Positions 6,356-43,223 of a DNA stretch of 64,000 nt are shown here, in pieces. Source of the stretch: an uncultured Candidatus Saccharibacteria bacterium (lineage in GTDB: Bacteria > Patescibacteriota > Minisyncoccia > Phycocordibacterales > GWA1-40-21). Each line of letters opens with the position of its first letter. Position 1 is the first letter of the stretch. Position numbers and translations under genes: made by a program. The notes beneath the pieces were generated by a model. It did no database searches and was not told the origin of the DNA. It saw only the letters and a program-made list of their open reading frames with translations. The stretch covers positions 34,775 to 98,774 of the forward strand of contig CAZMNX010000001.1 in NCBI GenBank assembly GCA_964567825.1. The letters run 5' to 3'.

Positions 6356-6897
6356 ATCTCGGTTTTAATATTTATCGTAAAAGGAATATTCGAATCTCTA
6401 ACTAAATCAGAAATTGGCGAGTCAACGACTGAATAGCCAGCTCTGGTTTTTAAATCATTAATAAATGTAACCAAGCCTTGGCGATTTTTCGATATGCCAC
6501 TAACCAAAAACTGGATCTGGTTCTTTTTTACTAAACTAAACGATAGTCGATTGATCTGAACATTAGCATTCCGACTAGTAATAATCTTGGCGAAGTTGGT
6601 TGAGGCGATGGTGTTGTTCCGGCCATAAGCCTCAACCATTTTAATCTCGTCCAATGTTTGGGTTACGATCCTCAACGCACTTTCACCAATATTCTCTTTA
6701 TTTTCAACGTTAATAACCGTCTTAAATTGATCGCCAACCAGCTTGTCTTTTTGACTGACAGAAGCGTAGTAAGGAATAACGTAAGCCAAAAAATAGACTG
6801 AAAGTAAGGCGGCCATTAAAATAACCGCGGTTCCAAGTCGGAGAAAATACTCTGTTCTAATTGTCTTTTTTTGTTTTTCGGTTATTAGATTGGCCAT
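6352..6897 (-). CDS. type IV pilus assembly PilN-like protein
   Basis: Single N-terminal TM, 181 aa, immediately after pilM. Confidence 0.45.
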   Translation of the reverse strand: MANLITEKQKKTIRTEYFLRLGTAVILMAALLSVYFLAYVIPYYASVSQKDKLVGDQFKTVINVENKENIGESALRIVTQTLDEIKMVEAYGRNNTIASTNFAKIITSRNANVQINRLSFSLVKKNQIQFLVSGISKNRQGLVTFINDLKTRAGYSVVDSPISDLVRDSNIPFTINIKTEI

Positions 6898-6900
6898 AAA

Positions 6901-7965
6901 TTAAGATAAACTAAGACCATTCACCGCTGCATAATTTAATGAATCCAGATAACTTAGCTCCGGTGTGTATTGCTCTAATTTAAAGTTATTTATCCAAACA
7001 TTAGCTAAGTCAACCTTTAAATTCAAATTTAGAGACAGGTATTCTGGTAAACCAACAATCGTAGCTTCTTGACCACATAAAATGATCCTATCTACTTCAC
7101 CGACAACATCTTCACGTTCGTTACAGTAAAGGATAAACTTATACAACTCATCTTTGATGGCAGAAATAGTATTAATTAAATAAGAAAAAACTTCCATATT
7201 TTCCTCGTGGCTGTTATAAAGTTTCTCTTTCTTTAGCTTCGAGGCTTCAGCCGGGGAAATCTTAAAATATTTACACAAAGAATCGGTAAACGCCGAACTA
7301 CCAAAATTAATCGAGGAGGTTTGATAGACGACACCGTTTACAACTAAAGATAAGATGATATTAGACTCTTTAATGTTTACCAAAACGATAACCTGCCGAT
7401 TTCCCTCTTTAATTACCGCCCGGGCAACATTGTTGGCTTCACCACCAAAAAAAATAGGGGTTAGGCCCGCCGATTCAAAAACTGCCTGCCAGTCCTCAAT
7501 AAATTTAAGCGGCGAGGCTGTAACAACAACATCTAGTCCGCTTTGTGATTGATTTTTAGGAACAATATCGAAATCAAAAACTGCCTCCTTAGAAGAAAGG
7601 GGAATATTTTCCTCAAGCTTAAAATCTAAAATATCGTGTATCTCCTTAACTTCGAGCTCCGGTAAATGGGTTTTAAAAATATAAGTTTTTTCTTCTGGAA
7701 TAGAAAATCGGACGCAATTAACATTGGTTCTCTGTCTAATTTCCTTTAGCGCCTTAATTACTGAGTCTCTCTTAATAATTTCACTATGAATAATTGACCC
7801 TGCCTCAAAATCAACTTGGCCATACTTTTCTGGCAATAGGCCCTCAGCTCTATTTTTAGTTGAAAGAAAGCAAAAAGCATTATCGACCAATTCCAAAGAG
7901 ACCGCGGGCATGGCTAAAAATTTCGGGGGGGTAAAAAACTTTGAATAATTTGCTTTATGGGCCAT
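6901..7965 (-). CDS. pilM: type IV pilus assembly ATPase-like protein PilM
   Basis: Actin-like ATPase fold motifs (VIVLVNIKESNIILSLVVNGVVYQTSSINFGSSAFTD). The start was moved to the ATG at 7963-7965 (MAHKANYSKFF) because the 8046 ORF start overlaps the upstream DedA gene, and a TATAAT lies about 20 nt upstream. Confidence 0.7.
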   Translation of the reverse strand: MAHKANYSKFFTPPKFLAMPAVSLELVDNAFCFLSTKNRAEGLLPEKYGQVDFEAGSIIHSEIIKRDSVIKALKEIRQRTNVNCVRFSIPEEKTYIFKTHLPELEVKEIHDILDFKLEENIPLSSKEAVFDFDIVPKNQSQSGLDVVVTASPLKFIEDWQAVFESAGLTPIFFGGEANNVARAVIKEGNRQVIVLVNIKESNIILSLVVNGVVYQTSSINFGSSAFTDSLCKYFKISPAEASKLKKEKLYNSHEENMEVFSYLINTISAIKDELYKFILYCNEREDVVGEVDRIILCGQEATIVGLPEYLSLNLNLKVDLANVWINNFKLEQYTPELSYLDSLNYAAVNGLSLS

Positions 7966-8932: not shown

Positions 8933-9310
8933 TTATTTATTTTTATCAATATAACTTTGTAAAATTATCGCCGCTGCTGAAGCATCGATCATATCATTTT
9001 CCCCAGTAATCTGGCTTGCCTGAATTGAAGTCATAAATTCTGGCTCGAAAATAACTTTTAGGCCGATTAATTCCAGCTGTTTTCTAAAACCATCGATCTT
9101 CCACATGATCTCATTAATTTTCCCATGAAAATCACGCGATTCGCCCATCACCACTACTTCCACATTATTTTTAATACACAAATTAGCTATATTTTTCAAT
9201 AAATCACTATCGTTGGTTAAAACAATTTGAGGAAAGGCAATCCTTCCTTCATCATCAGACATAGCAATCCCCACTCTTTTTTCGCCAAAATCAATTCCTA
9301 GATATCGCAT
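8933..9310 (-). CDS. ruvX: Holliday junction resolvase-like protein RuvX/YqgF
   Basis: MRYLGIDFGEKRVGIAMSD N-terminus. Confidence 0.85.
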   Translation of the reverse strand: MRYLGIDFGEKRVGIAMSDDEGRIAFPQIVLTNDSDLLKNIANLCIKNNVEVVVMGESRDFHGKINEIMWKIDGFRKQLELIGLKVIFEPEFMTSIQASQITGENDMIDASAAAIILQSYIDKNK

Positions 9311-9354
9311 CTCCCCATCTTACACTAAAACAAACAATCAATAAATATGTCAAA

Positions 9355-9395
9355 GGGGTGGGGCGAATATTTCGCGCCCCACCCCCCTTTTTTTC
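9355..9395. terminator. GC-rich hairpin GGGGTGGGGCG-AATATTT-CGCGCCCCACCCC followed by T8; boundary of the GC-rich cassette
   Basis: Perfect 11-bp inverted repeat and T-run read directly, 30 nt downstream of the stop of the 9425..10333 gene. Confidence 0.45.
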
Positions 9396-9424
9396 TTCCT
9401 GCTTTCTTTGTACAGACAGACGGC

Positions 9425-10333
9425 TCAACCCTGCCGGTCGAGGATCTGCCGGAGCCGCTCGAGCATCTGCTTGGCTGCTTCCTCCATGGCAATCTCGGAG
9501 TCCTCGGCCGGAATGTGAACAACCTTCCACCCCTTGCGCAGCCCGAGGTTGTTGTGCCCATCAGCCTTCGGAACCGTGTCCCGCACGCCACGCCAGAAGA
9601 TCTGACGTGCCATCGAAACTTGTTCCGTGACGTAACGGTTGCGCGTAACAGCCGCCTCAATCAGACACCTCGCTTCGGCTTCAGATGAAGCCCTGACCTG
9701 ATGGACCGGCTTGAGCTCCGGCACCCGACTGAGGCGCTCGAGGACCACGCCGACACCCAACACGACCGGAGAAACGATTTCCCCGATGATGGTCTCCTCA
9801 CGTTCAAGGCTAACCAGAGGAAACCTTTCCCCCTCGACCTGCGCCGCACTCACCTCCGGCCCGGACATCGCTCGGCGCAAATCGCCGAAGAAGGTCAGCG
9901 CCAAGTGATCAGGCGTCTCAAACAAAGGTGTCGACGAAGCTCGACCACTCGGAGAAACCACCAACCAGCCGTCGCGCAGGGCGATGTCGTTCCAATTCCC
10001 GGGGAAGGTATGCAATACCCCCTGCCAGAAAAGATCGTTCATCATCACGCGAATAGCGTCGATTTCTGTCTGCCGCTCCTGGTGGCTGACCAAGGCCTCA
10101 AAACACGGGCGTTCCCGCCGATAGGTCTGCGTGAAGCTTTCCTCCTCGTCGAGCATGAGCAAGCGAAGCCGCTCGCCTTCACAGTAGAAGTTGCGGATCA
10201 TGGGATCCATCATCGTCCCCACCGAAAGCTCGCCGGGCTGATACTCCCGGTCTGAACCGCCGGTATCGACCACAACCGCAGTGTTGTTAAAGATCCGACG
10301 CGCAGACTCGAACACAGACAACTTGGTAGTCAT
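9425..10333 (-). CDS. GC-rich cassette gene A: unknown 302-aa protein with internal repeat, paralog of the 31093..31947 product
   Basis: About 60% GC ORF in a <40% GC background, with an SD (GAGGGAAA) and a low-GC TTGACA-containing upstream region. Its N-terminus aligns with the 31.9-kb gene (TMMDPMIRNFYCEG vs VLTDPMGRAFYHYG), and the motif LFW.GV..(n)LGLR.GW occurs twice. Confidence 0.5.
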   Translation of the reverse strand: MTTKLSVFESARRIFNNTAVVVDTGGSDREYQPGELSVGTMMDPMIRNFYCEGERLRLLMLDEEESFTQTYRRERPCFEALVSHQERQTEIDAIRVMMNDLFWQGVLHTFPGNWNDIALRDGWLVVSPSGRASSTPLFETPDHLALTFFGDLRRAMSGPEVSAAQVEGERFPLVSLEREETIIGEIVSPVVLGVGVVLERLSRVPELKPVHQVRASSEAEARCLIEAAVTRNRYVTEQVSMARQIFWRGVRDTVPKADGHNNLGLRKGWKVVHIPAEDSEIAMEEAAKQMLERLRQILDRQG

Positions 10334-10431
10334 CGTATTTCCCTCGTTAGACGTTACAGTTCGGTCACACTTCTAATTAATAGACTAATATACAACTAAA
10401 ACTATGTCAACATATCTAAAATAAAGAAATG

Positions 10432-11202
10432 CTAGCCAAAAATCTCCTTAAAATGCTCTGTCAAAATCTCGCTTTTTTCCTCTTTATCTGCCTCACTTAT
10501 TAAATCCTGCCACTCCTTGGCGGTAGAATATCTTTCTTTAACGTGAACCTCAGCCTTGTCTTTCAGATTATTTATATTTAAAGCTGGATGACCAGCTATG
10601 GCCGATACCACTCCAGCTGTTCGGGAAATTTTTTCATCGGCTACCGGGCGGAGGTCTTCTGGTTCAATATAAAATGTATAAACCATACTTGTTGGAGCTA
10701 AACATTTTCGTAAAATTACCGATATACCATCTTTAAATTTAAATCTGGGATTTTTTTTACCAATTCTATCAGTACCGCCAGTTGGATACAGTAAAACAAT
10801 TCCCCCGCTTTCAATGTGCTCCTTTATTGTTCTGATAAAAGATAGGGCCTCGGTCGGATCATCAGTCGCTTTAATTAAGAGCTCTTCACCCACAATTGGT
10901 GCAAAAAAATTATAGTTCGATTCATTGATAACAATTTTTAAATCTTTTCTTTTTAAGGCATTTAGAATGGTAAAAGTATCATAATAACCAGGATGATTAG
11001 CAATAATAATTCCAGCTTCAGTATTCAATTTTTCTCTAGCCTCAGTAAAAGCCGCTTCATCAGACTGCTCGAGAGCGTAAACCGGTTTCAGTTTTGCCTC
11101 TTCTAAAACTTTAGCGCCTGTCGCTTGAAAACCACCCTCAGCCAAATTGAGCTGCAAATTATCCGCCGCTATCTTATACAAATCACCTTTTAATCCCTCC
11201 AT
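10432..11202 (-). CDS. lysophospholipid acyltransferase (PlsC-like)
   Basis: ANHPGYYD matches the H(X)4D acyltransferase motif; 256 aa. Confidence 0.55.
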   Translation of the reverse strand: MEGLKGDLYKIAADNLQLNLAEGGFQATGAKVLEEAKLKPVYALEQSDEAAFTEAREKLNTEAGIIIANHPGYYDTFTILNALKRKDLKIVINESNYNFFAPIVGEELLIKATDDPTEALSFIRTIKEHIESGGIVLLYPTGGTDRIGKKNPRFKFKDGISVILRKCLAPTSMVYTFYIEPEDLRPVADEKISRTAGVVSAIAGHPALNINNLKDKAEVHVKERYSTAKEWQDLISEADKEEKSEILTEHFKEIFG

Positions 11203-11323
11203 GTGTTTTTATTTTTCGCTTAAACATAAAAATATCATACCATTCTATCAAGTTAAAAGTCATCAACGAAAAATACTTACCCGCAGGTCTTTGGATAGAA
11301 TGGAGATTTTAGACAAATGAAAA

Positions 11324-11359
11324 GGCCTCGCACACAAGTGGCGTGAAGTGTGCGAGGCA
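11324..11359 (-). terminator. rho-independent terminator of GC-rich cassette B
   Basis: GGCCTCGCACAC-(12-nt loop)-GTGTGCGAGGC perfect inverted repeat, followed on the minus strand by CTTTTCATTT. Confidence 0.5.
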
Positions 11360-11415
11360 CCCTTCATCCCCCGTACGAGGCCGTAGCGAGAAGATTCTTG
11401 GTTCTCTCAGACCAT

Positions 11416-11892
11416 TTACCAGCCACCGCCCTGCAACCGCCTGGCCACAGTTCTCGGCTTTTCGATGAAGTCGCTCATATCGCTGCCCTGGTAAAAGGGG
11501 CGATACTGATGTTCCTTCATCCAGTCAGCCAAGGCAACGCACCGATTCGCCATACCCATGACGATGGCGTGCGAAGACGGAACGGCTGGTGCGCTCCATC
11601 CTCGACGCTCTTGCCACCACCGCACAATGCGTGAGCGAGCCTCGTGCGTCCAAACCGCGACGTTGCGTTCCCACTGGAGGCGATCGTGAATCTGATCGGC
11701 CGCTTGCCGAAAAAGATTCACAAGCTCTTCTGAGCTGAGTGTCTTCCACTCTTGTCCGCCGTGTATGGGTACCCCCTGAAAGAGGGCCTCGTAACGCCTG
11801 ACGATGGGGCCGGCAAACGAAATGTTATTCGTGTCCGCGCTGCTCACCAACTCAATCCCCCCACCCGTCTTCTTGTAACGAATTATCTTCAC
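11416..11892 (-). CDS. GC-rich cassette gene B: unknown 158-aa protein (GTG start, SD AGGAGA)
   Basis: GC-rich ORF; the GTG start is preceded by ACAGGAGATTCACC; no recognizable motif. Confidence 0.4.
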   Translation of the reverse strand: MKIIRYKKTGGGIELVSSADTNNISFAGPIVRRYEALFQGVPIHGGQEWKTLSSEELVNLFRQAADQIHDRLQWERNVAVWTHEARSRIVRWWQERRGWSAPAVPSSHAIVMGMANRCVALADWMKEHQYRPFYQGSDMSDFIEKPRTVARRLQGGGW

Positions 11893-11977
11893 GGTGAATC
11901 TCCTGTTCTATCCGTTATTTCAACACCTGACTAGAACCCTATATATAACTCTAGCATATTTATTATAAAAAGTCAAA

Positions 11978-12007
11978 TGCGGAGGATATGGGACGACGTT
12001 GGAGCAG
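11978..12007. repeat. 30-bp direct repeat copy 1 (TGCGGAGGATATGGGACGACGTTGGAGCAG)
   Basis: 29/30 identical to the copy at 12730..12759; lies about 85 nt upstream of the cassette-B gene start, in that gene's orientation. Confidence 0.8.
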
Positions 12008-12035
12008 TATTGATAGAAAGTGAAGACGAACCGTG

Positions 12036-12692
12036 TTATTTCTGATATACAATCTTTAGACTTTTAATAGTCACTCCTGAATGCGGAGATGAAAAAGAAA
12101 TTTTTGATAAATAGATTTTTGATAAGCCAGCAAATAGCGCATTAAAATCATCCTGTTCGTAGTGTCGAATAACCCTTTCAATTTTGTTATTCTTGTCGTA
12201 AGAAAAACCGACACTATCTTCCCCTAGGATTTTTTTAGCAATTTGATATCTACTTTTATAGTCGGGTGAATAGGTCGCATCACAAAGCCACAGATATCCT
12301 CCACTTTTTAGAACGCGTATTATTTCTTTAGCGGCAGCTATTTGCTTTTTCTTAGAAATAATACTAGCAAAGACATACGGAACAACGACCGCATCGAATG
12401 TCTCATTGGCAAAAGGGAGTTCGTTAGTTATGTCTGCTCTCTTATAACTAATATTGCCATTTATCTTTTTACCCTCTTTTAAGGCTTTCACATTTAGGTC
12501 AACCCCAGTAACCGTATATCCTTTTCTAAATAAAAAATCAGAGACTTTCCCTATTCCACAACCGACATCGAGAATATTACTTCTCACCTTCAGGTGGTTG
12601 GTCAATTCTGGGCCGGGAAATACTGTCCCTGATAGAATTTTTTCGGGTTGAATATTTTTCCAATATTCTTTATTAAATTTATCACTATCCAT
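12036..12692 (-). CDS. class I SAM-dependent methyltransferase
   Basis: VLDVGCGIGKVSDFL glycine-rich SAM motif I; 218 aa. Confidence 0.75.
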   Translation of the reverse strand: MDSDKFNKEYWKNIQPEKILSGTVFPGPELTNHLKVRSNILDVGCGIGKVSDFLFRKGYTVTGVDLNVKALKEGKKINGNISYKRADITNELPFANETFDAVVVPYVFASIISKKKQIAAAKEIIRVLKSGGYLWLCDATYSPDYKSRYQIAKKILGEDSVGFSYDKNNKIERVIRHYEQDDFNALFAGLSKIYLSKISFSSPHSGVTIKSLKIVYQK

Positions 12693-12729
12693 CGAACGGC
12701 TATTGTAGCAAAATTTATTTGCGGAGGAT

Positions 12730-12759
12730 ATGGGACGACGTTGGAACAGCTTTAAACAA
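12730..12759. repeat. 30-bp direct repeat copy 2 (TGCGGAGGATATGGGACGACGTTGGAACAG)
   Basis: Overlaps the last codons of the ABC-F gene and lies about 38 nt upstream of the methyltransferase start. Confidence 0.8.
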
Positions 12760-14203
12760 TCGTTCCCCCACGGATAGTCAGGGTACGAGTAATTGATATC
12801 TTTTCGATAAAATAGCGATCGTGAGAAACTACAATGATAGAGCCCTTATAATCGACCAACGCGCTTTCAATTATTTCTCGAGAAATAATGTCGAGATGAT
12901 TTGTCGGCTCGTCCAAAACGAGTAGCTCGTTTTCTTGATTTGTTAATTTAGCGAAAATAAGCCTCACCCTTTCACCCAGACTTAAATCGGAAACTTTTTT
13001 AAAAATATCCTGTCCACGAAAAATAAAGGCGCCCAAGATGGCCCTAGGATCCCTTGTCGTGCCAATTAATCTATCAGTGTTTAAGAATTCTTCAATTACA
13101 GTCTTATTCGGGTCTAAGTTTTCATGCTCTTGGGCAAAGTAACCGATATGAACTTTTTCACCAATTCTTACGTTTCCCTCATCTAGCGCGAGGTCGCCGG
13201 CTATTATTTTAAGTAAAGTTGTTTTTCCCGAACCATTATCCCCGGAAAGTAAAATCCTTTCTCCTCCTCTTACCTCAAGATTGATTCTCCAAAGAATATT
13301 TTTTTCGGCAAATCTTTTGGTCACCTCTTTAACTCTAATTATAAGTTTGGAGGCAGCTGTTTCTCCTTTTAGGTCGAGCCCCCGAATCTTATTGTATTCT
13401 CTTGGCTTGATGATTTCTTGACTGTAAATTTCTCTTTCTAATCTTTTTTCCATCGCCCTGATCTGCTTGCCCTTGGCAGGATCTGGATGCACATGTGCCT
13501 CTTGTTTTTTTAGAGCTAACCAAAGTTCCATCCGCTTCTTTTCTTTTTGCTGTCGCCAATAATTATCCTCCTGCCTCAAAAGCTGATTGTTCCTCTCCGT
13601 CACGTAGTCACTATAACCTCCAACGTATTGAGTAAATTTATGATTTACAGGATTAATTTCTAATATCTTACTTACACAGTTATCAAGTAATTTTCTATCG
13701 TGAGAGATTAGTAAGATTGCCCCCTTAAAATCCTTAATGAGGCTTTCGAGCCACTCTACACCCTTCTTATCCAAATGGTTTGTCGGTTCATCAAGTAGTA
13801 AAATGCCGGCCCCTTCAAGTAATATTTTTGCTAGGGCTAGTCTGGTTTTTTGCCCTCCGCTTAATTTATTTACTAATGTGTCAGTTGCTACCTTGCTAAG
13901 CCCAACTTTTTCAAGAATTGATTTCGCCCTACCGACGCTTTCGTCGATTGATAGGAAACTCTTTATTGTGTCAGTACCCTGATGGGACGGTTGTTGTGGC
14001 AAATAGCCAACTCTTTCGTGATCTATCTGAACATTACCCCCATCTGCTTCTATTTCACCAACGATTATCTTCATAAGGGTTGATTTACCAGAACCATTTG
14101 GTCCAACTAAGCCGATTTTATCTTTTTTGTCCAAGGTAAAAGACACCTTTTCAAAGAGGGGCTCACCTAGTATCGATTTTGTTATATTTTTTACGGTAAT
14201 CAT
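12752..14203 (-). CDS. ABC-F family ATPase (EttA-like translation factor), two ABC domains, no TM
   Basis: Two Walker A motifs (GPNGSGKST, GDNGSGKTT), two LSGG signatures and a charged linker; 483 aa. Confidence 0.85.
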   Translation of the reverse strand: MITVKNITKSILGEPLFEKVSFTLDKKDKIGLVGPNGSGKSTLMKIIVGEIEADGGNVQIDHERVGYLPQQPSHQGTDTIKSFLSIDESVGRAKSILEKVGLSKVATDTLVNKLSGGQKTRLALAKILLEGAGILLLDEPTNHLDKKGVEWLESLIKDFKGAILLISHDRKLLDNCVSKILEINPVNHKFTQYVGGYSDYVTERNNQLLRQEDNYWRQQKEKKRMELWLALKKQEAHVHPDPAKGKQIRAMEKRLEREIYSQEIIKPREYNKIRGLDLKGETAASKLIIRVKEVTKRFAEKNILWRINLEVRGGERILLSGDNGSGKTTLLKIIAGDLALDEGNVRIGEKVHIGYFAQEHENLDPNKTVIEEFLNTDRLIGTTRDPRAILGAFIFRGQDIFKKVSDLSLGERVRLIFAKLTNQENELLVLDEPTNHLDIISREIIESALVDYKGSIIVVSHDRYFIEKISITRTLTIRGGTIV

Positions 14204-14424
14204 TTTTTTGTTAAGAATTAAAAAAAACCAGCTAGTGCCGGTTTTTCAAAAAAGATGGTTAAACGCTAGAATTAAGTTAGTTTTTTTGAAATTTTACCCA
14301 GCACAAAACAGCCTGAGTAGTTGCTCCCTTAAAGTTCTTGAACAGAATGTAAAATTTGTCTTTCATGACGTTTATTATAGTACTACAAAAACGCACTAAT
14401 TGCAATATGACACCTAAATATTAT

Positions 14425-14514
14425 TGGCGGAGGAGGTGAGATTCGAACTCACGGCACCCTTGCGAGCGCGACAGTTTTCAAGACTGTTCCTTTAAACCAC
14501 TCAGGCACTCCTCC
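14425..14514 (-). tRNA. tRNA-Ser (TGA), type II, encoded CCA
   Basis: Acceptor GGAGGAG/CTCCTCC, anticodon stem ACAGT/ACTGT with loop CTTGAAA, long variable arm, T-loop TTCGAAT, 3' GCCA. Confidence 0.8.
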
Positions 14515-14561: not shown

Positions 14562-15470
14562 TTATTCCGCCTTATTCACTTTATGCCCACCGAATTTATT
14601 ACGCATAGCGGAAATTAATTTACCAGCGTAAGTTGGTGTAGTGCGTGACTGCTCACGGACCTCAAGCGCATTCTCCAAGCTAGGCATCTTACCATCAGCC
14701 TCAGCTAAAAGTTTTTTCATCTCCTCTTCCGTCTCCCCTTTTGGCACATTACCAGAAATAGCATCCAGGTAACCGGTCTCATTAAAAGATTCAGCCAGCC
14801 AGGTCATTAATTTACTGTCCACAATACTACCGTGAGAATAAACTTTAGCAACTTCTTTTAAATCCACATTCAGGCTGGAATTCTTTATTACTTCAAAACC
14901 TTCGCCAAGGGCCGACATCATGCCATATTCGATCCCGTTGTGCACCATCTTTACAAAGTGGCCGGCACCGGAATTTCCCAAATAAGCAAAACCTTCTGGC
15001 CCAGCTAAATCTTTAAAAACATTTTTAGTGTATTCAAAACTTTCTTTATCACCACCAATCATGAGGCACGCTCCATTTCGGGCCCCGCCCATTCCACCAG
15101 AAGTACCACAATCCATAAAACTCACGCCCACCTTCTTTAATTTGGCGTAACGAGCTTGGGAATCTTTATAATAAGAATTACCGCCGTCGATCACGATATC
15201 GCCCTCATTTAAAAGTGGGGTGAGCTCGCCAAGCACTTGATCCAAGGCTTCACCAGCGTTCACCATGAGCCAGATTACTTTCTTTTCTGGCAATAATTTT
15301 ACCAACTCAGAAACTGAAGACGATGGCGCCGCTCCAACCTTAACCACTTCTTGCATTTTTTCCTGAGTACGATTAAAAACTACCACTTCATATTTATGAT
15401 CAAGTAAATTCAAAACCATATTTGAGCCCATGCGGCCGAGACCGATAAAACCAATTTTTAACTTTTCCAT
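14562..15470 (-). CDS. gnd: 6-phosphogluconate dehydrogenase (decarboxylating), short form
   Basis: N-terminal Rossmann motif GFIGLGRMGSNMVLNL; about 300 aa; adjacent to zwf. Confidence 0.8.
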   Translation of the reverse strand: MEKLKIGFIGLGRMGSNMVLNLLDHKYEVVVFNRTQEKMQEVVKVGAAPSSSVSELVKLLPEKKVIWLMVNAGEALDQVLGELTPLLNEGDIVIDGGNSYYKDSQARYAKLKKVGVSFMDCGTSGGMGGARNGACLMIGGDKESFEYTKNVFKDLAGPEGFAYLGNSGAGHFVKMVHNGIEYGMMSALGEGFEVIKNSSLNVDLKEVAKVYSHGSIVDSKLMTWLAESFNETGYLDAISGNVPKGETEEEMKKLLAEADGKMPSLENALEVREQSRTTPTYAGKLISAMRNKFGGHKVNKAE

Positions 15471-19448: not shown

Positions 19449-19539
19449 AGAACAGGCTTCTTAAGCATCTTATTGCAAGGTAAATACCGATTATGATACA
19501 ATTGTTAGATATTAATTATTTATTACTAATCTTAATCTA

Positions 19540-20112
19540 ATGACTAAAGTCCAAAAGTATCTTCTGCCCATCACTCTAGTTTTAGCAATCATTTTTGGTG
19601 TTTCTACTTCTCTTTTAAAAAGTAAAAATCCTGGCGATGCCATAAGTAATCTCGGCGCCGCCGTCGTCTCAACTATGGGTTCGGGTAGCAGTAGTTCAAG
19701 GTGGACATGTGATCCAGGTCCCGATCCAAGTGGGTGTGTTCCAGGAACGCATATAATGAAAACTTTCGTATTAAGGGGCTGTGGTTGGACCCAAACATAT
19801 GAAGGCTGCTCAGTTAGTTGTGGTGCAGATCCTATGCTTCCCTATCCCAATCCTATGTCGCGCTGTTCTGGAATTAAAACCATAACAAAAGAGTATAAAA
19901 ACTGTAAGTGGGTAGACGGTAGTCCGAAGTGTGAATATAATAGTTGTTCTTTGGCGCGAAAACCTAGAAATGGCTGCGCTAACAATGTTACCTTAACATC
20001 TTGGAATCTGGACCGAGCTTCCTGCTCGTGGAAACCAGTATATTTACCCTGCAGTATGTATGGTCTGACGAGATGTGATCCAAATATTACAGCTGAAAAT
20101 AAGTGCATCTAA
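19540..20112 (+). CDS. Cys-rich secreted/anchored protein 1, with a leader identical to that of the 20997 gene
   Basis: Signal/TM YLLPITLVLAIIFGV plus a Gly/Ser linker; 21 Cys in 136 aa of the mature part; the first 53 codons plus 21 nt upstream are identical to the paralog. Confidence 0.6.
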   Translation: MTKVQKYLLPITLVLAIIFGVSTSLLKSKNPGDAISNLGAAVVSTMGSGSSSSRWTCDPGPDPSGCVPGTHIMKTFVLRGCGWTQTYEGCSVSCGADPMLPYPNPMSRCSGIKTITKEYKNCKWVDGSPKCEYNSCSLARKPRNGCANNVTLTSWNLDRASCSWKPVYLPCSMYGLTRCDPNITAENKCI

Positions 20113-20948: not shown

Positions 20949-20996
20949 AATTAATACTGTGTTAAGATTAGTGGGTTTATTACTAATCTTAATCTA

Positions 20997-21632
20997 ATGA
21001 CTAAAGTCCAAAAGTATCTTCTGCCCATCACTCTAGTTTTAGCAATCATTTTTGGTGTTTCTACTTCTCTTTTAAAAAGTAAAAATCCTGGCGATGCCAT
21101 AAGTAATCTCGGCGCCGCCGTCGTCTCAACTATGGGTTCGGGTAGCAGTTCGAGTAACGGGCCTTGTTCGAATGGCAGGCCATGTTGTGGCGGTAGGCCG
21201 TACTCTGGTTTCGAACGTTGTTGCAATGGCGTAATATACGATAGTGAATCTTGGCAGGGCATTAATCCAGATGGCAGTATCAGTGACCATGACCGAGTTT
21301 GTTGTGGTGGTAGGGTTGTGGTAGTTGGGAATGATAGTCGCTGGGTAGGTACTATATGTTGTCAAAATATCAATACTGTTAAGACTTATAATCGTCGCCA
21401 TTGGGATTGTAGCTCCACGGGAATATGTCTACTAAATGAGACCAGAGTTTGTGGTGGTTGCGCAAATCAGCCTAATCCACTAGAGGCACCTTATTGTGTT
21501 CAATATGATACGGGGGCACATATGATTCACCGCACATGGAATAGTCAAAGATGTGCTTATGGTGATTTCCAATGGACCGATTGTGGTCCTGGTTCTCGAT
21601 GTAATAGCACAGGGACAGCTTGTCAAAGATAG
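20997..21632 (+). CDS. Cys-rich secreted/anchored protein 2, with the identical leader module
   Basis: Same 53-aa N-terminus, then a different Cys-rich domain (CCGG repeats; 26 Cys). Confidence 0.6.
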   Translation: MTKVQKYLLPITLVLAIIFGVSTSLLKSKNPGDAISNLGAAVVSTMGSGSSSSNGPCSNGRPCCGGRPYSGFERCCNGVIYDSESWQGINPDGSISDHDRVCCGGRVVVVGNDSRWVGTICCQNINTVKTYNRRHWDCSSTGICLLNETRVCGGCANQPNPLEAPYCVQYDTGAHMIHRTWNSQRCAYGDFQWTDCGPGSRCNSTGTACQR

Positions 21633-30768: not shown

Positions 30769-30868
30769 CTCGAACCTCTTAGTTTTGACGAACACACAGA
30801 TCTCTTGGCGAAATACCAAGTTTAATCTCCGTCGCAAGGTTATCACACAATAGACTATTTGTCAACTG

Positions 30869-30941
30869 TCCGCCCAGTTGGAATCGAACCAACGACCTTC
30901 TCCTTAAAAGGGAGCTGCTCTACCAGCTGAGCTATGGGCGG
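30869..30941 (-). tRNA. tRNA-Lys (TTT)
   Basis: Acceptor CCGCCCA/TGGGCGG, D-arm GCTC-AGCTGGTA-GAGC, anticodon loop CTTTTAA, T-arm GTTGG-TTCGATT-CCAAC; the 3' end faces cassette C. Confidence 0.75.
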
Positions 30942-31008
30942 ATTGAAAAGAATATAACAAGAAAAAACCCAAATGTCCAATAATATTCCGACTATACAAT
31001 ATCAAAAA

Positions 31009-31052
31009 AGAGGCCGGTGGTGGGAATCGAACCCACACACCGCCTCCCATAT
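31009..31052 (-). terminator. tRNA T-arm-like hairpin plus T6: terminator of cassette D, or a tRNA 3' remnant
   Basis: On the minus strand GGCGGTGTGTGGG-TTCGATT-CCCACCACCGGCC is followed by TCTTTTTTGA. It has a T-loop-like TTCGATTCC, but no complementary 5' acceptor strand could be found. Confidence 0.4.
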
Positions 31053-31092: not shown

Positions 31093-31947
31093 TCAGCCAA
31101 CGCCGACCATAACCTCCTGTGGCGGGAACGACGTCAGCATCCAACCCGCCCGGAGGCCAAGTGAGGACGTCTGCTCGCCATCGAGCATCTTCTCGACCAC
31201 CCCCGCCCAGAACAGATCGGCGGCCAAGTCACTGCGAGTTCGCGCGCGTTCCATGGCGACCAGAACCTTCCTGACGTAACCGATGGAGTGCGAAGCCACG
31301 AAGGCATTCATACCCGTCTTGTCGTTCATGAAGGGAATCTCGGCTTTGGCATCGTCCCGAATCTGAGACGAAACGTTCCAGAGTGCCCGCAGAGCTGGAT
31401 CATCGATCGTCGCCATTTCGGCTTCGCCCTCTTCGAGTGGCGAATCCACGTCAAACGAAGCTTCGGCCGCCGTTCCGCTGTCGCCCTTCAGAGCTGCAGT
31501 CACCTCATCCAGAAAGTTCGGATGGGGATTCTTCACGTCACCACCGAACTGACCGAATAGCCCGTCCTTCTTGGCGAACACCCGGAACCCAGAGCAGATC
31601 ACTCCCTGGTCGAAGATGCCGCGCATGGCCGGCAACTCGCGCAAAATGCATTCCCAAGCGAAACGCATCAGCAGGTTGCCGTCCTCCCTCGCCCGCTGCG
31701 CGCTCTGAATCCGCCTGCCGAACTCGCCGAGATTGGGCAGACTGATCAGGCCGCCGGACAGCGACTCCATCACTTTCTCGCGACCGTAATGGTAGAACGC
31801 CCGCCCCATGGGATCGGTCAGGACACCGATCTCCTCGTAACCCCCTGGGGCCTCTGTTCTATTGACAGTGCAGATCTCCGACGGGACGTGCCCGTTCAAA
31901 ATCTCACCCACCAAAACGAACGCCGACTTACTCTTGCTTGTGCTCAT
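31093..31947 (-). CDS. GC-rich cassette gene D: unknown protein, paralog of the 9425..10333 product
   Basis: About 60% GC; ATG at 31945-31947 preceded by GAAAGG; shares DPMGRAFYHYG and ADLFWAGVV..(n)..LGLRAGW motifs with cassette A. Confidence 0.5.
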   Translation of the reverse strand: MSTSKSKSAFVLVGEILNGHVPSEICTVNRTEAPGGYEEIGVLTDPMGRAFYHYGREKVMESLSGGLISLPNLGEFGRRIQSAQRAREDGNLLMRFAWECILRELPAMRGIFDQGVICSGFRVFAKKDGLFGQFGGDVKNPHPNFLDEVTAALKGDSGTAAEASFDVDSPLEEGEAEMATIDDPALRALWNVSSQIRDDAKAEIPFMNDKTGMNAFVASHSIGYVRKVLVAMERARTRSDLAADLFWAGVVEKMLDGEQTSSLGLRAGWMLTSFPPQEVMVGVG

Positions 31948-32050
31948 GGCACTGCCTTTCTGGTCCAATAATGTGGACCGATTGACTAACCAACAACCGA
32001 ACAGACATCAAAAAACTACTAAACCTAAAAAGGAGATTAGCACGAATAAT

Positions 32051-33863: not shown

Positions 33864-34634
33864 CTATATCTTAACTTGCTTTTCTTCTTCAACCAAGTCC
33901 CAGATCAAATCAAACTTTTGCTTTTCACTAAAAGCGATCTCTTTGCTTTCTATCATTAATACCACGAGCTCTTTGCCTCCACCAAAAATAATCACTCGAT
34001 CATCGTATATTAAAGTTGAGGTATTATGATTATATTTTGTCGGCAAATATTTTACCTCTCGCAATTCCTTCTCGTTATTCTCCTGGCCTACCCACTTTTT
34101 TGTTTTATCAAATAGATCATCAAAAAAAATCCCCCTCATAGAAATATTCATCTTAACCCGCCTAGGTAGATAATGATTTAAGTCGTACTCCTCACTTACG
34201 ACCTGATGTAATTCTTTTAATGACCCAATATAACGTAAAACTGCGCCGGGCGTCTTTAGGCTGTCCTCAGCTACCACCTTAAAGGCCTCCTTACCTTCAT
34301 ACAAAACTATCTTTGGTTGATAAGGTTTACTGCTAGCTAAGGCTTTAAACTGAGGCAATAAACTAGAAAGCTCTTTGAGTCTTCGCTCTTCTCTGGTGAA
34401 AAACATCTCGGGTTTGGTAGCAATAAAGTGCAGGCCGTCTCTCATTTTTAAACTACCCATCAAACCCCTTGCCTCCAATCCTTTAAATGTTAAATAGGCC
34501 GTAGAACGCTTGATTTTAGCCCTTTTGGCGATAGCGGACATGCCGGATTCACCCAGCTCAAGACTGGCCAAATACAAAGAGGCCTCTCTTTCTTCTAGGC
34601 CGTAATCCACTAATTTTTTAAATAATTCTTCCAT
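33864..34634 (-). CDS. TrmB-family transcriptional regulator (module 1)
   Basis: N-terminal winged HTH (GLEEREASLYLASLELGESGMSAIAKRAKIKRSTAYLTFKGLEARGLMGS) plus a C-terminal TrmB-type domain; divergent to the SBP gene. Confidence 0.65.
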   Translation of the reverse strand: MEELFKKLVDYGLEEREASLYLASLELGESGMSAIAKRAKIKRSTAYLTFKGLEARGLMGSLKMRDGLHFIATKPEMFFTREERRLKELSSLLPQFKALASSKPYQPKIVLYEGKEAFKVVAEDSLKTPGAVLRYIGSLKELHQVVSEEYDLNHYLPRRVKMNISMRGIFFDDLFDKTKKWVGQENNEKELREVKYLPTKYNHNTSTLIYDDRVIIFGGGKELVVLMIESKEIAFSEKQKFDLIWDLVEEEKQVKI

Positions 34635-34805
34635 TGTCGTTATTTATGACAACAGTATATCACAGCCAATTATGTTGTAAAGCCCTTTATCCACAGCCTA
34701 TTTTAGAAAGTTAAAAAGTTTACTTTTATCGTATAGTCATATTTCGTGACTTATTGACAATTTCTATTATAATTACAGAGTTATTTAATAGGATAATTTA
34801 AAGAC

Positions 34806-35861
34806 ATGAAAAACAAAATAATTATAAGTATAGTCGCCATTGCACTAATAGTCTTTGGTTTTACAATACAGAGCACAAGAACAGAGACAGCTCCGATAAA
34901 AATCGGTGTTATTCTCCCTCTAAGCGGAGATCTGTCTTTTATTGGCGAGCCGGCTAAGTATGGCGCGGAAATGGCTTTGGAAAATTTCAAAGACACTAAA
35001 CATAAATACGAGTTGGTCTTTGAGGACGATCAGTTTGATGGAAAAAAAGCCGTCACAGCTGCCCAAAAACTAATTTCGGTTGATAAAGTAAATGTCTTGG
35101 TGACCTTTGGTTCATCCGGTGGTAATTCGGTGAAACCACTAGCAGAAACAAATAAAATTCTGCACTTTACTGTCGCCTCGGATCAAAAGATCGCTGATGG
35201 TAAATATAATTTTAACCATTGGACTTCCCCAAAAGAAGAAGTCACCACCATGGTGGCTGAACTTATCAAAAACAATATTAAAACTGTAAGTATTTTGACA
35301 ATGAACCAAGACGGTATGATTTCCACAACCAATGAACTAAAGGAGCAATTAAAAAATACTAATATTCGAATAATTGATGACGAAAAATTTAATGTCGGGA
35401 CAAGAGACTTCAGAACTTTAGCTGCTAAAGTTAAGCTAAATCAACCTGAACAGATCATCATGGTAAACTACTCTCCTGAGCTTGAGATACTTGGTAGACA
35501 AATACGAGAAACTGGCATAAAGGTTCCCATGACGTCCTTCGAGGGCTTAGACGCCACCACCGATCCAAAATTATTTGCTGGCTCCTGGTATTCTACCGCC
35601 AGTGATGTGACAGAAGCCTTTAAAAATACATTCAAAGCTAAGTATAGTGTCGCCCCAATAGTAGGAACGGGTAATGTTCACGACGTTATATCTATGCTTA
35701 TTACAGCGACTGAAAATGTTCGAGGTTCGGTCACAACAGAAAAAATCGCTTCGGAACTATTAAAAATAAAAGACTTTGACGGTTCTATCGGTCGTATCTC
35801 CATGGATCAGAACGGTTCAGTTGTATCTAAGGCAGTCATAAAAACTGTGGTAGCCAAATAA
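34806..35861 (+). CDS. Liv-type (Peripla_BP_6) ABC substrate-binding protein (module 1)
   Basis: N-terminal TM/signal, then IKIGVILPLSGDLSFIGEPAKYGAEMALE, typical of LivJ/K-like SBPs. Confidence 0.7.
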   Translation: MKNKIIISIVAIALIVFGFTIQSTRTETAPIKIGVILPLSGDLSFIGEPAKYGAEMALENFKDTKHKYELVFEDDQFDGKKAVTAAQKLISVDKVNVLVTFGSSGGNSVKPLAETNKILHFTVASDQKIADGKYNFNHWTSPKEEVTTMVAELIKNNIKTVSILTMNQDGMISTTNELKEQLKNTNIRIIDDEKFNVGTRDFRTLAAKVKLNQPEQIIMVNYSPELEILGRQIRETGIKVPMTSFEGLDATTDPKLFAGSWYSTASDVTEAFKNTFKAKYSVAPIVGTGNVHDVISMLITATENVRGSVTTEKIASELLKIKDFDGSIGRISMDQNGSVVSKAVIKTVVAK

Positions 35862-35868
35862 GACACAG

Positions 35869-36672
35869 CTACTCCCGAAGCTCCCCATTCCCCCAGGCGA
35901 TCTCGAAGACCATTTTCATCATATCGTGAATGATTTGGTCTTCGATGATTACCCCGATAATATTTAGACCGCCAAGTTTTACAATTGAAACTTTATTTTT
36001 GCCATAAATAGTAATCTCGGCTTCATAAGGAAACTTTTCGGCTGGTATATAGCGTGCCTTGGGCCACAATTCTTTTTTTATATTCTCAAATACCTCTGGG
36101 CTGTAAGACCGATTCTCTGGTGTGTCAGGAAGAATCCCTCTGGTAGTAATATTCAAACGCTCCTTTGCTTTAATAAAAGCTTTCAACTGTATTGGGGTCA
36201 TAACATTTTTAAATTTATCAGCATTGGAAAAGGCCATCATCTCATAATTACCCTCTCGAGAAACTGCATCATTACAAATATTTAAAATAGTGTCTGGACC
36301 CTCGAAGAATAAAACTTTGGGACGATCGGCCATCAAAGAAAAGATTTCTTCAATATCCGGCAAGATTTTTTCGATTCTCTCTAAACTCGACTTAGCCATT
36401 TCAATTCGACTATTGGAATACTGGGCAAGTTTATGTGGTTTATCGATTTGATAAAATATTTTATTTCTTTTTTCTACTTCATTAACCAAACCTCGAACCG
36501 ATAGTGTGGCCAAAACATTATAAGTCGTGGCCCGCTTTAGGCCACAGTATTCAGCGATTCTGGAAGGATAGGCCCCACCGAGCTCAAGCAAGGACACATA
36601 AACCAAAGCTTCTTTGTCTGTAAAACCTGTACTTTCGAGTTTTTTAACTAGAGATTGATTCTTTATTTGCAT
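35869..36672 (-). CDS. TrmB-family transcriptional regulator (module 2)
   Basis: GFTDKEALVYVSLLELGGAYPSRIAEYCGLKRATTYNVLATLSVRGLV wHTH. Confidence 0.65.
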   Translation of the reverse strand: MQIKNQSLVKKLESTGFTDKEALVYVSLLELGGAYPSRIAEYCGLKRATTYNVLATLSVRGLVNEVEKRNKIFYQIDKPHKLAQYSNSRIEMAKSSLERIEKILPDIEEIFSLMADRPKVLFFEGPDTILNICNDAVSREGNYEMMAFSNADKFKNVMTPIQLKAFIKAKERLNITTRGILPDTPENRSYSPEVFENIKKELWPKARYIPAEKFPYEAEITIYGKNKVSIVKLGGLNIIGVIIEDQIIHDMMKMVFEIAWGNGELRE

Positions 36673-36888
36673 ATAAACAGTATATCAGGTGCCAAATTTA
36701 TTGTCAAACTAAACCGACAAAATAACCCACCTAGGCCTAAATCCTATTAAAATAAAGCTATTTTAGCCTTATTTGTCATTTGCTTCACCTAAAGTATTGA
36801 CAACCGTGTATACTTGTATCAGAACAAGCACGTTGAAATTTCGGTCAAAACAGGCTTATTAATTTAAAAATTAACATTTAAAACATTT

Positions 36889-37977
36889 ATGAAAAAATAT
36901 CTTGGAATTATATTAGCAATTATTGTCGTCATCGTCGGTATCCTAATCTTTAGTCAAAAAGAAACTAAATCACAAACGAGCGAGAAGCAAACGGTAAAAA
37001 TCGGTTTGAGTCTTCCCCTCTCTGGTGGTGTCGCCTTTCTCGGTGAACCAGCTAAGAAAGCAGCCGAGCTGGCCTTGAAGGATGCCGGCAAGACGAAATA
37101 CAATTATGAATTAGTTTTCGAAGACGATCAGTTCAGTCCAAAAATTGCCGCGAGCACAGCAAGTAAACTCATCAACGTGGACAAAGTTTTGGCGATAATC
37201 GAATTCGGTTCTGGTACCGGTAATGCTATCAATAGCATTGCAGAAAAGGGACAGACAGTTGAATTCGCTCTTGCCTCTGATCCAACGGTCGCTAAAGGAG
37301 TGTACAACTACGTTCACTGGACTCCGCCATTCAAGGAGGGACAATTACTGGCACAGGAGTTGATCCAGAGAGGATACAAAAAAGTATCAATTATTGATAC
37401 CAATCATCCCGGTCCTTTAGCGGTTACTGATGCAGTAAAAGAATTTGTAAAAGGTTCTGGTGTAGAGATTGTTTCTTATGATCTAACAAATATTGGAGAG
37501 AAAGATTTTAAAACAATTATTACTAAAATAAAGAAAGCTAACCCAGACATTGTTATTTTAGAGATGTTCTCACCAGAAATTGAAATCGCCGCTCGTCAAA
37601 TGAAAGAGTTGGGTGTAAATATACCCGTTACGTCAGTCGAGACATTTGAATGGAGCAGCAATCCGGAATTGTTTGAAGGTTCCTGGTTCGTCTCAGATTC
37701 AATCGTGCCGAACTTTACCGCTAAGTTTAAGTCAGCTTACGGCACCGATCCACAAGCCGGCTCATCTTACGTCTACGACTTGGTCAGCCTACTCATCAAG
37801 CTTCAAGAGAAATCGGACACCGTGATCGCGCCTAAAGATCTACCGGCGGCCATCACCCAAATGGGTGACTGGAATTCTCCGGTCTTTGGACAGGTAAAGA
37901 TCGACAGTGAAGGTTTCTTCATCACCGAACCATCGGTCAAAATGATCAAGGATGGCAAGGTTATCTCGGCCCAATAA
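36889..37977 (+). CDS. Liv-type ABC substrate-binding protein (module 2)
   Basis: VKIGLSLPLSGGVAFLGEPAKKAAELALKD. Confidence 0.7.
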   Translation: MKKYLGIILAIIVVIVGILIFSQKETKSQTSEKQTVKIGLSLPLSGGVAFLGEPAKKAAELALKDAGKTKYNYELVFEDDQFSPKIAASTASKLINVDKVLAIIEFGSGTGNAINSIAEKGQTVEFALASDPTVAKGVYNYVHWTPPFKEGQLLAQELIQRGYKKVSIIDTNHPGPLAVTDAVKEFVKGSGVEIVSYDLTNIGEKDFKTIITKIKKANPDIVILEMFSPEIEIAARQMKELGVNIPVTSVETFEWSSNPELFEGSWFVSDSIVPNFTAKFKSAYGTDPQAGSSYVYDLVSLLIKLQEKSDTVIAPKDLPAAITQMGDWNSPVFGQVKIDSEGFFITEPSVKMIKDGKVISAQ

Positions 37978-37983
37978 GCCAAC

Positions 37984-38014
37984 AAAAAACCACCCGCATC
38001 ATGGGTGGTTTTTT
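37984..38014. terminator. bidirectional rho-independent terminator (AAAAAACCACCC-GCATCAT-GGGTGGTTTTTTG)
   Basis: Perfect 8-bp stem flanked by A6 and T6, between the convergent SBP2 and livG genes. Confidence 0.7.
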
Positions 38015-38015
38015 G

Positions 38016-38768: not shown

Positions 38769-38823
38769 TCATACAGTATAACAAAAAACCATTGACAGCA
38801 AAATCACGTTTGTTATACTTTAA

Positions 38824-39282
38824 CTACTTACGGCCTTCGGGCTCGGAACCACCTTTACAAGAGGTGGTTTCATATTTACGTTCTTTATCATCAATGACGT
38901 CTTTCATCCTGTTTTTTATTTCTAAAAAATTTTCCTCATTAATATAACCGATTTTATCAATCAATCTCTTGCTATCGATTAACTTTATTTGAGAAAGGTT
39001 GACTGTATTCTTGGTCTCAACACTAAAAACATCAAAACTGAAATAGTACTTCCCCAATTTGTGTTGTGAAGTCAAAGAAAGTCCCCAGAAAGTTTCGGCA
39101 TTAAACTTTTTGAATATTAAAACCGGTCTTCTAAATTCATCGCCCTTCCCATCTTGTTCATATCCGACATTCAGACCTAAGTGACACCACCAGACTTCTC
39201 TAGTGCGAAAAAACACATTATCTATGTCTTTCAGATTGATAATCTTTTTCTTCTCATTCCACCGATCAAAATCTTTCCCCAT
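38824..39282 (-). CDS. MazF/PemK-family endoribonuclease toxin-like protein, no adjacent antitoxin ORF
   Basis: VWWCHLGLNVGYEQDGKGDEFRRPVLIF...LSLTSQHK and C-terminal SQIKLIDSKRLIDKIGYI fit the PemK/MazF fold pattern; only 83 nt of non-coding DNA lie upstream. Confidence 0.6.
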   Translation of the reverse strand: MGKDFDRWNEKKKIINLKDIDNVFFRTREVWWCHLGLNVGYEQDGKGDEFRRPVLIFKKFNAETFWGLSLTSQHKLGKYYFSFDVFSVETKNTVNLSQIKLIDSKRLIDKIGYINEENFLEIKNRMKDVIDDKERKYETTSCKGGSEPEGRK

Positions 39283-41358: not shown

Positions 41359-41360
41359 CC

Positions 41361-43221: not shown

Positions 43222-43223
43222 AA

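Follow-up and report, generated by a model that had tools for sequence, protein, structure and literature searches.

Why do two almost identical 30-bp direct repeats lie on either side of a single methyltransferase gene in an uncultured Candidatus Saccharibacteria bacterium? The stretch of DNA in which we addressed this question, hereafter the window, comprises 64,000 nt (contig CAZMNX010000001.1 of assembly GCA_964567825.1, positions 34,775 to 98,774 of the forward strand). Our analyses suggest that the repeats are probably two copies of a ~35-bp attachment-site (att) junction that arose by site-specific integration at the 3′ end of a tRNA-Ser(UGA) gene, where single-gene cassettes have been placed in tandem. 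The methyltransferase gene itself is most likely an integrase-less cassette, situated between two such junctions and mobilized in trans either now or in the past.

The repeats had been described in an earlier note on this DNA, and they proved to be real and non-random. The 30-mer TGCGGAGGATATGGGACGACGTTGGAGCAG occurs exactly at 11978-12007, and a second copy with one mismatch (G to A at position 26) lies at 12720-12749, not at 12730-12759 as first reported. No further copy with three or fewer mismatches was detected in the window, and the chance expectation estimated from 100 shuffles was 0. A repeat search of the window lengthened the pair to 40 nt with 88% identity and a spacing of 742 nt. 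As the note had stated, the two copies bracket a minus-strand gene at 12036-12692, which encodes a 218-aa class I S-adenosylmethionine (SAM) methyltransferase (Pfam Methyltransf_11, 7e-19). The spacing of 40-85 nt upstream of gene starts proposed in the note applies to copy 1, which ends 85 nt before the GTG start of an open reading frame (ORF) termed ORF B, but not to copy 2, which ends 27 nt before the ATG of the methyltransferase gene in coding orientation. Likewise, the 30-mer of copy 2 does not overlap the last codons of the adjacent ABC-F gene, as it starts 2 nt past the TAA stop, but the longer conserved unit of ~35 nt (12720-12754) does include that stop. Because the same order of repeats and genes is found in two independent Logan assemblies, L001 and L002, the arrangement is not an assembly artefact. 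Every gene involved at the repeat locus is on the minus strand, and the features that carry the argument are as follows.

14425-14514, minus strand: tRNA-Ser(UGA) gene, the putative primary (attB-like) integration target, detected by ARAGORN and Rfam (59.6 bits).
14425-14434, minus strand: last bases of the tRNA-Ser gene, TCCTCCGCCA, identical in sequence to the motif 3′ end.
14427-14434, minus strand: the universal core TCCTCCGC within the tRNA-Ser gene.
12755-14424, minus strand: putative ABC-F cassette directly after the tRNA gene, with a 221-nt leader and the ABC-F gene (12752-14203).
12720-12754, minus strand: motif copy 2, a putative junction, TAAAGCTGTTCCAACGTCGTCCCATA followed by TCCTCCGC and A (nhmmer E=6.5e-13); it holds the ABC-F stop codon (12752-12754) and the core (12721-12728).
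12036-12719, minus strand: putative methyltransferase cassette with the 218-aa gene (12036-12692; 35% GC).
12702-12710, minus strand: extended -10-like sequence TGCTACAAT, 12 nt past copy 2.
11978-12012, minus strand: motif copy 1, a putative junction, CAATACTGCTCCAACGTCGTCCCATA followed by TCCTCCGC and A (core 11979-11986; nhmmer E=1.6e-10).
11948-11976, minus strand: promoter-like site TTGACT-17-TAGAGT, its -10 preceded by TG, which begins one base past copy 1; found by a consensus scan and only suggestive, since such sites are no more frequent in the region than in shuffles.
11416-11892, minus strand: ORF B, 158 aa, 57% GC, GTG start, codon-position GC in the order GC3>GC1>GC2.

We gathered the corresponding loci of relatives through the flanking proteins RuvX and ABC-F and searched them by mismatch scans and with an nhmmer profile. 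Fifteen distinct copies of the motif were identified in seven genomes of Paceibacterota, a group of the Candidate Phyla Radiation (CPR): two in the window, one in L017, three in L029, two in L003, one each in L008 and L007, and five in L014/L015. Read on the gene strand, the conserved unit of ~35 nt is TAAA(A/G)CCGTTCCAACGTCGTCCCATA followed by TCCTCCGC(C/A), or, written continuously, TAAA(A/G)CCGTTCCAACGTCGTCCCATATCCTCCGC(C/A). All 15 copies are intergenic, and wherever the context is visible they lie in the hypervariable stretch between 6PGD/tRNA-Ser(UGA) and RuvX. The motif is sharply delimited at either end, and the sequences flanking it are unrelated between contexts. It is also rare and restricted to the clade: among 185,579 species genomes, the exact 22-nt core was found in a single one (L003, a metagenome-assembled genome of the CPR), and it occurred in five metagenome contigs and in no viral contig. 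The earlier note had considered that the 30-mer might occur at many unrelated positions or have non-syntenic flanks; the 22-mer is rare, and the flanks of the locus are syntenic.

The recurrence of the same sequence in six other genomes indicates that the repeat is a defined site and not a random target that became duplicated. This bears on the suggestion, made in the earlier note, that the repeats are a target-site duplication produced by a transposon carrying the methyltransferase gene. Such an event would account for a single gene bracketed by direct repeats, but a length of 30-35 bp far exceeds that of known duplications (2-15 bp short type), neither terminal inverted repeats nor a transposase accompany the gene, and in the other genomes the sequence surrounds unrelated genes. 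We therefore regard duplication by a transposon as extremely improbable, although the part of the suggestion that makes the repeats insertion-junction sites agrees with the reading we prefer.

What ties the motif to the tRNA gene is its 3′ end. The tRNA-Ser gene ends with GAATCTCAC-CTCCTCCGCCA and the motif with CGTCCCATA-TCCTCCGCC(A), giving an identity of 10 nt that is co-terminal and on the same strand; when shuffled motifs were compared with tRNA-Ser, 20 of 5000 reached this level. The sequence TCCTCCGC(CA) is common to the tRNA end and to every well-preserved motif copy, and the core TCCTCCGC corresponds to the 3′ strand of the acceptor stem, the discriminator and the next base of the tRNA. 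By contrast, the 25-26-nt left arm of the motif is no more tRNA-like than shuffled sequence (2948 of 5000 shuffles scored at least as well), so the identity with the tRNA starts abruptly at the core. A displaced tRNA half as the source of the entire motif was ruled out, as the arm does not resemble the T-arm region of the tRNA. The tRNA-Ser(UGA) gene is also present in L029, L014, L012, L016 and L008, of which L012 and L016 lack the motif, and in four of the five genomes with motif copies and the tRNA in view (the window, L017, L029 and L014) the copies are located downstream of the gene and co-oriented with it.

Two comparisons with relatives were decisive and showed that homology breaks at the same position. 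The stretch between G6PD-6PGD-tRNA-Ser on one side and RuvX-tRNA_bind-(VTT)-PilM on the other differs in every genome of the clade that we examined, and many contigs, including those of further RuvX relatives, break within it. In L017, the order is tRNA-Ser, an ABC-F gene (83% identical), one motif copy placed on the stop codon as in copy 2, different small GC-rich ORFs, a terminator and RuvX. The blastn alignment of the window with L017 runs from 14438 to 12718, ends within 2 nt of the motif end and returns at 9337; the lineage-specific segment, which measures 3.4 kb in the window and 0.63 kb in L017, thus begins within 2 nt of the motif 3′ end. The methyltransferase gene of the window is absent from the equivalent position in both L017 and L029, and L017 is therefore the type of relative envisaged in the earlier note, with a single repeat copy and without the methyltransferase.

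The second comparison contrasts an empty tRNA site with an occupied one, as the note had also envisaged. The tRNA-Ser gene of L029 is 100% identical to that of the window over 90 nt and is followed by a 286-aa gene, a degenerate motif copy (m1), a Methyltransf_11 gene that is not homologous to the methyltransferase of the window, a second copy (m2), the ABC-F segment and a third copy (m3). Window positions 14408-12720 align by blastn with L029 positions 9541-11242; this sequence adjoins the tRNA in the window but follows m2 in L029, and the homology ends at window position 12720, in motif copy 2. An insert of 1.84 kb with two genes and two motif copies consequently separates the 3′ end of the L029 tRNA-Ser gene from the sequence that follows the tRNA in the window, and a 13-nt direct repeat, TCCTCCGCAGATG, occurs at each end of this insert. 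The tRNA side of L029 matches the tRNA of the window left of the core, and the m2 side of L029 matches the flank of the window tRNA right of the core. In the notation of attachment sites, the window would read B-O-B′ and L029 B-O-P′ ... P-O-B′. Judged from sequence, the locus thus has the attL/attR anatomy expected of integration into a tRNA gene with tandem accretion.

The ABC-F segment, which m2 and m3 bracket in L029, can be viewed in the same way. In the more distant L018 and L020, the ABC-F gene (72-74% identical) is located elsewhere and without the motif, and the protein of the window reaches 433 bits with the NCBIfam model for ribosomal-protection-like ABC-F proteins (NF000355), whose cutoff is 380, and was also detected by Pfam. 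On account of these three features, the ABC-F gene looks like an older cassette. Its product of ~482 aa has the usual length in the clade, which rules out shortening by insertion. In L029, the gene (9748-11197) is split into ORFs of 102 and 398 aa by an apparent frameshift.

These comparisons also bear on whether a dedicated integrase needs to be invoked. The motif could be a mobile regulatory or homology module, in which case cassettes would be shuffled, duplicated and deleted by gene conversion or ordinary homologous recombination, for instance when DNA has been taken up. An identity of 30-35 bp is about the minimum for RecA-dependent exchange. Several observations fit such a process: no integrase was found, promoter-like sites follow most copies (TTGACT-17-TAGAGT past copy 1, TGnTAnnnT ~12 nt past several others), type IV pilus/competence-type genes (PilM) adjoin the locus, and variants shared within genomes (CTGYTCC in the window; ATC and CCCCGCC in L014) would suit gene conversion. 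However, homologous exchange would not explain why the motif ends like the exact 3′ end of the neighboring tRNA-Ser, why the L029 insertion, with its 13-nt repeat, starts exactly where the tRNA ends, or why the 25-nt non-tRNA arm is nearly invariant among genomes whose proteins are only 70-80% identical. We consider this explanation unlikely.

The motif copies that form arrays are upstream of, and co-oriented with, a gene, and their spacing is compact. In four cases the upstream ORF has its stop codon 3 nt ahead of the 21-nt core, within the TAAA of the motif; in a fifth case the distance is 6 nt. In L014, a copy precedes each of five consecutive same-strand genes, which encode a GC-rich 127-aa ORF, a Peptidase_S51 protein, a 166-aa ORF, a zeta-toxin-like P-loop protein and a polysaccharide lyase; the copies are spaced by 626, 701, 581 and 605 nt. 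In L003, two copies bracket a gene for a 449-aa transporter. The L014 and L003 units are flanked by junctions and contain no integrase or transfer genes. As side observations, the tRNA-Ser gene is inverted relative to RuvX in L014 (9484-9571), L016 (9072-9158) and L008 (7206-7291) when compared with the window (14425-14514), and the L014 array is inverted together with it, which suggests inversions of the whole hotspot in some lineages.

The junctions might alternatively be the scars of larger, integrase-bearing islands or prophages at tRNA-Ser that have been almost wholly deleted, in which case the single-gene cassettes would be leftovers rather than mobile units. CPR genomes are under strong reductive pressure, and three copies that have degenerated (L029 m1, L014 e and L003 a) show that decay does occur at the locus. 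Partial tRNAs left as remnants, as well as degenerate elements, are moreover well described in tRNA-linked islands (bioRxiv 10.1101/2020.12.28.424599). Nevertheless, the five L014 units, each consisting of one gene and one junction, would require repeated and very tidy deletions, and the compact units in which an ORF stops inside the next junction would require equally tidy ones; no integrase fragment was found in any unit with Pfam, PHROGs or PADLOC. An origin as island scars thus appears rather unlikely.

The position of the copies before genes raises a further alternative, in which the motif is an operator or activator site through which one transcription factor co-regulates the downstream accessory genes. 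The array copies stand just before promoter-like sequences and are co-oriented with the genes, and L014 copy a is located within a divergent promoter region. But typical operators differ from this site, which is asymmetric, nearly invariant and ~35 nt in length, and its distance to the -10 varies from ~8 to 27 nt. The L007 copy precedes a bidirectional terminator and a convergent gene. One to five copies cluster at a single locus without the spread of a regulon, and the exact core is present in just one of the 185,579 species genomes. The tRNA-identical end and the homology breakpoints would also go unexplained. The sharp borders, variable spacing, L007 terminator and one-locus clustering make the shared operator that the earlier note had offered as an option unnecessary; we judge it very improbable, and, like the target-site duplication, it suits the data poorly.

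Under the preferred reading, site-specific integration at tRNA-Ser, each junction would consist of a 25-26-nt element-specific arm (TAAAACCGTTCCAACGTCGTCCCATA), the 8-nt core TCCTCCGC and a loosely conserved RATGAYTTT-like flank, with the arm often providing the TAA stop of the upstream gene. The units would be one-gene cassettes of 0.6-1.8 kb, apparently with their own promoter-like site just past the core, and their addition in tandem would leave one junction between successive cassettes. The window would then read tRNA-Ser, ABC-F cassette, junction, methyltransferase cassette, junction, and ORF B with the older flank. A tyrosine or serine integrase would catalyze the recombination and, because no integrase was found, would presumably act in trans. 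The cassettes would pass through a circular form that carries one junction, and the methyltransferase cassette may have been the last to enter, at the junction behind ABC-F. Of this reading, the sequences directly show the motif family, its core identical to the tRNA end, the homology breakpoints and the empty and occupied sites, whereas the enzyme, the circle and the order of entry are inferred.

A number of results weigh against this reading. Pfam scans of ~85 ORFs of the window detected no integrase, recombinase or transposase domain, and none of these was encoded by the genes called within 10 kb in the related loci. No cassette gene was found at two places when 30 cassette and neighbor proteins were searched against all loci with tblastn, and no population variant without the methyltransferase was detected, the three assemblies of the strain being identical. 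The last cassette of each array does not have a terminal junction distinguishable from the older flank. The universal core is short, at 8 nt (10-13 nt inside single genomes), and when any of the seven tRNAs of the window is allowed, the 10-nt match is reached in 62 of 2000 shuffles. The L008 motif and tRNA-Ser are oppositely oriented, and no tRNA was seen in L003 and L007 within the stretches examined. Finally, tRNA flanks and motif flanks are not more similar within genomes (6.1 identities of 10) than between them (5.35), so that a lineage-specific co-variation of the two is unsupported.

Several other identities for the motif were considered and rejected. Neither the motif nor its 111-nt contexts showed better folding than shuffled sequences, whichever strand was considered (z from -0.53 to +1.45), which rules out a hairpin, attC site, repetitive extragenic palindromic (REP) element or terminator. 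An Rfam scan of the window at gathering thresholds returned only tRNAs, and E-value scans around the copies and in L008 gave nothing credible, arguing against an RNA element. A dif/Xer-type site was ruled out from sequence by the absence of inverted 11-bp arms and of a switch in cumulative GC skew in the window. Three scans of viral contigs for a phage or plasmid carrier of the site yielded 0, 4 and 0 matches, and the four belong to one gene family, at about chance level. In these four IMG/VR contigs (L025-L028), the 21-mer GTTCCAACATCATCCCATATC, the same as part of L014 copy a, lies within a conserved phage ORF; it is read on the opposite strand as ...ITIWDDVGTNN..., without further similarity to the motif, and we judge it a chance match (~0.5 expected, by rough estimate). 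PADLOC and PHROGs gave only generic methyltransferase and P-loop matches for the cassette genes, so that an origin from defense systems or phages was rejected. The related DNA that we examined contained no cognate integrase-bearing element with the same att specificity.

A system of this kind is already known, but its single-gene, integrase-less form in a CPR bacterium is new. A close parallel is provided by the ssrA genomic islands (ssrA-GIs) of Dehalococcoides, tandem islands at a tDNA-type target with a direct repeat of the target 3′ end and an element-specific motif just upstream, for which integrase-less, cis-mobilizable units have been proposed (PMC3146451). Both systems have an intact target RNA gene at one end, tandem units bounded by a repeat of its 3′ end, and a motif directly upstream of the repeat that cannot be aligned to the target gene; both occupy a hypervariable part of a small genome and include units without integration genes. 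In Dehalococcoides, however, the target is the transfer-messenger RNA gene, the repeat is 20 bp, the units are several kb long and 16 of them have a serine-recombinase integration module, whereas here the target is tRNA-Ser, the core 8-13 nt and the units 0.6-1.8 kb with one gene, and no integrase is seen. The tycheposons and tRNA-linked islands of Prochlorococcus likewise integrate at tRNA genes of a streamlined genome, and the islands contain scattered remnants and extra partial tRNAs (bioRxiv 10.1101/2020.12.28.424599). Tycheposons differ in having their own integrases and replication modules, a size of many kb and recognizable partial-tRNA repeats, while the repeat at the present locus has only the last 8-10 bases of the tRNA and otherwise consists of a non-tRNA arm. 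Cis-mobilizable elements (CIMEs), which form by accretion beside integrative and conjugative or integrative and mobilizable elements, have attL/attR-type flanks, lack integrase and transfer genes, and need the recombinase of a related element (PMC5704250; PMC3146451). The methyltransferase unit similarly lies between two junctions and contains the methyltransferase gene only. CIMEs are found alongside a cognate element, in contrast to this locus, where no helper element is visible, and neither a single-gene size nor arrays of up to five units are typical of them.

With integron cassettes and clusters of attC sites lacking integrases (CALINs), the arrays share co-oriented, compact and mostly single-gene units of diverse and often unknown function, one site per unit, no integrase within the cassette, and an upstream ORF that often ends inside the site. 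Unlike integrons, they have a site of ~35 nt without a hairpin or imperfect palindrome that is nearly identical between cassettes, apparent promoters of their own and an anchor at a tRNA gene. No intI, attI or tyrosine recombinase was found in the window or the related loci, and literature searches for integrons or cassette arrays in CPR bacteria gave nothing relevant. A tentative extension of our reading, which may well not hold, is that Paceibacterota possess an undescribed integron-like mode of gene capture, in which promoter-bearing, recombinase-less single-gene cassettes, even one with an antibiotic-resistance-type ABC-F gene, would be inserted and excised by a trans-acting integrase through a linear, non-hairpin site of ~35 bp with the 3′ end of tRNA-Ser(UGA) as core, the tRNA gene would serve as attI, and each cassette would add one junction. 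Arbiol et al. in 2010 are said to have described PeSLs, ‘mobile regulatory cassettes’ of a promoter and a stem-loop that spread by homologous recombination in hyperplastic regions of T4-type phages. Like the present motif, PeSLs are reportedly short conserved intergenic modules next to promoters, which border small ORFan genes of hypervariable regions and would mediate the shuffling of these genes; the present motif differs in having no stem-loop and a tRNA-derived core.

The remaining features around the locus are listed below.

14562-15470, minus strand: 6PGD gene.
11314-11360, minus strand: likely intrinsic terminator that ends the ORF B unit, a GC-rich hairpin GCCTCGCACAC...GTGTGCGAGGC followed by the T-run CTTTTCATTT, read from the sequence; a simple terminator scan with a loop limit of 3-8 nt missed it.
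9338-11313, minus strand: remainder of the lineage-specific segment, without motif copies (nhmmer); homology with relatives resumes at the RuvX promoter (9337; blastn against L017, L009, L012, L014, L016 and L029).
10432-11202, minus strand: acyltransferase gene (Pfam).
9425-10333, minus strand: GC-rich ORF A, with its own promoter-like site and terminator.
8933-9310, minus strand: RuvX gene.

Searches with Pfam, PHROG, PADLOC and NCBIfam returned no match for ORF B, which is a member of a small uncharacterized protein family of CPR metagenomes, with 61 remote relatives, one of them in Candidatus Campbellbacteria; its AlphaFold2 (AF2) model has a pLDDT of 92, and fold matching was uninformative. 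ORFs A and B are two of the islands of 53-61% GC that are found in this ~38% GC genome (9425-10333, 11416-11892, 29786-31968, 55584-57022 and 62229-62606). Each island has one or two ORFs without Pfam matches and with a coding-type GC3>GC1>GC2 pattern. The islands whose flanks were read, namely ORF A, ORF B and the one at 29.8-32 kb, look like moron-type units: each has an AT-rich promoter resembling the consensus, a leader ~45-60 nt long and a terminator formed by a GC-rich hairpin. Comparable GC-rich ORFs are found after motif copies in L003, L014 and L017. In the window, only ORF B adjoins the motif, and most of the islands therefore entered by another route. Between the GC-rich ORF at 31093-31968 and a native tRNA-Lys gene (30868-30941), a GC-rich sequence, GTGGGTTCGATTCCCACCACCGGCCTC, with a T-run (31008-31036) resembles the T-arm/acceptor 3′ half of a tRNA and may represent either a tRNA-like terminator or part of a tRNA displaced by a separate integration event.

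Other observations concern more distant parts of the window. A perfect 174-nt direct repeat (19519-19692 and 20976-21149) spans 21 nt upstream and the first 51 codons of two plus-strand ORFs of 190 and 211 aa without Pfam matches; their products have an identical signal- or transmembrane-like N-terminus and a GSGSSSS linker, followed by different Cys-rich C-terminal domains, which suggests recent duplication or gene conversion of a 5′ module. The region 33864-53127 holds an unusual series of paralogous pairs, with eight TrmB-family regulators, eight Peripla_BP_6 solute-binding proteins and components of branched-chain amino-acid ABC transporters, and a PemK/MazF-like toxin gene (38824-39282) is located among the transporter paralogs. 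Outside the window, L023 carries at 6464-7864, a few kb downstream of its RuvX block, a pair resembling a diversity-generating retroelement (bAvd and an RVT_1 reverse transcriptase) together with a LAGLIDADG-like ORF.

CPR bacteria, or Patescibacteria, have tiny genomes with few recognizable mobile elements, and the means by which they gain accessory genes are poorly understood. The locus described here offers a concrete route of acquisition, a tRNA-Ser-anchored hotspot that gathers one-gene units, each with a defined 35-bp junction. The contents of these units include a ribosomal-protection-type ABC-F protein, methyltransferases, a toxin-like protein, a peptidase and several uncharacterized GC-rich genes. 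If the junctions were the scars of ordinary islands, the locus would be a tidy but unremarkable case of tRNA-linked island accretion. If the units are instead mobilized in trans as cassettes, they would constitute an integron analogue built on the logic of tRNA integrases, and the 35-bp site would be a simple metagenomic probe for such arrays and for the missing integrase.

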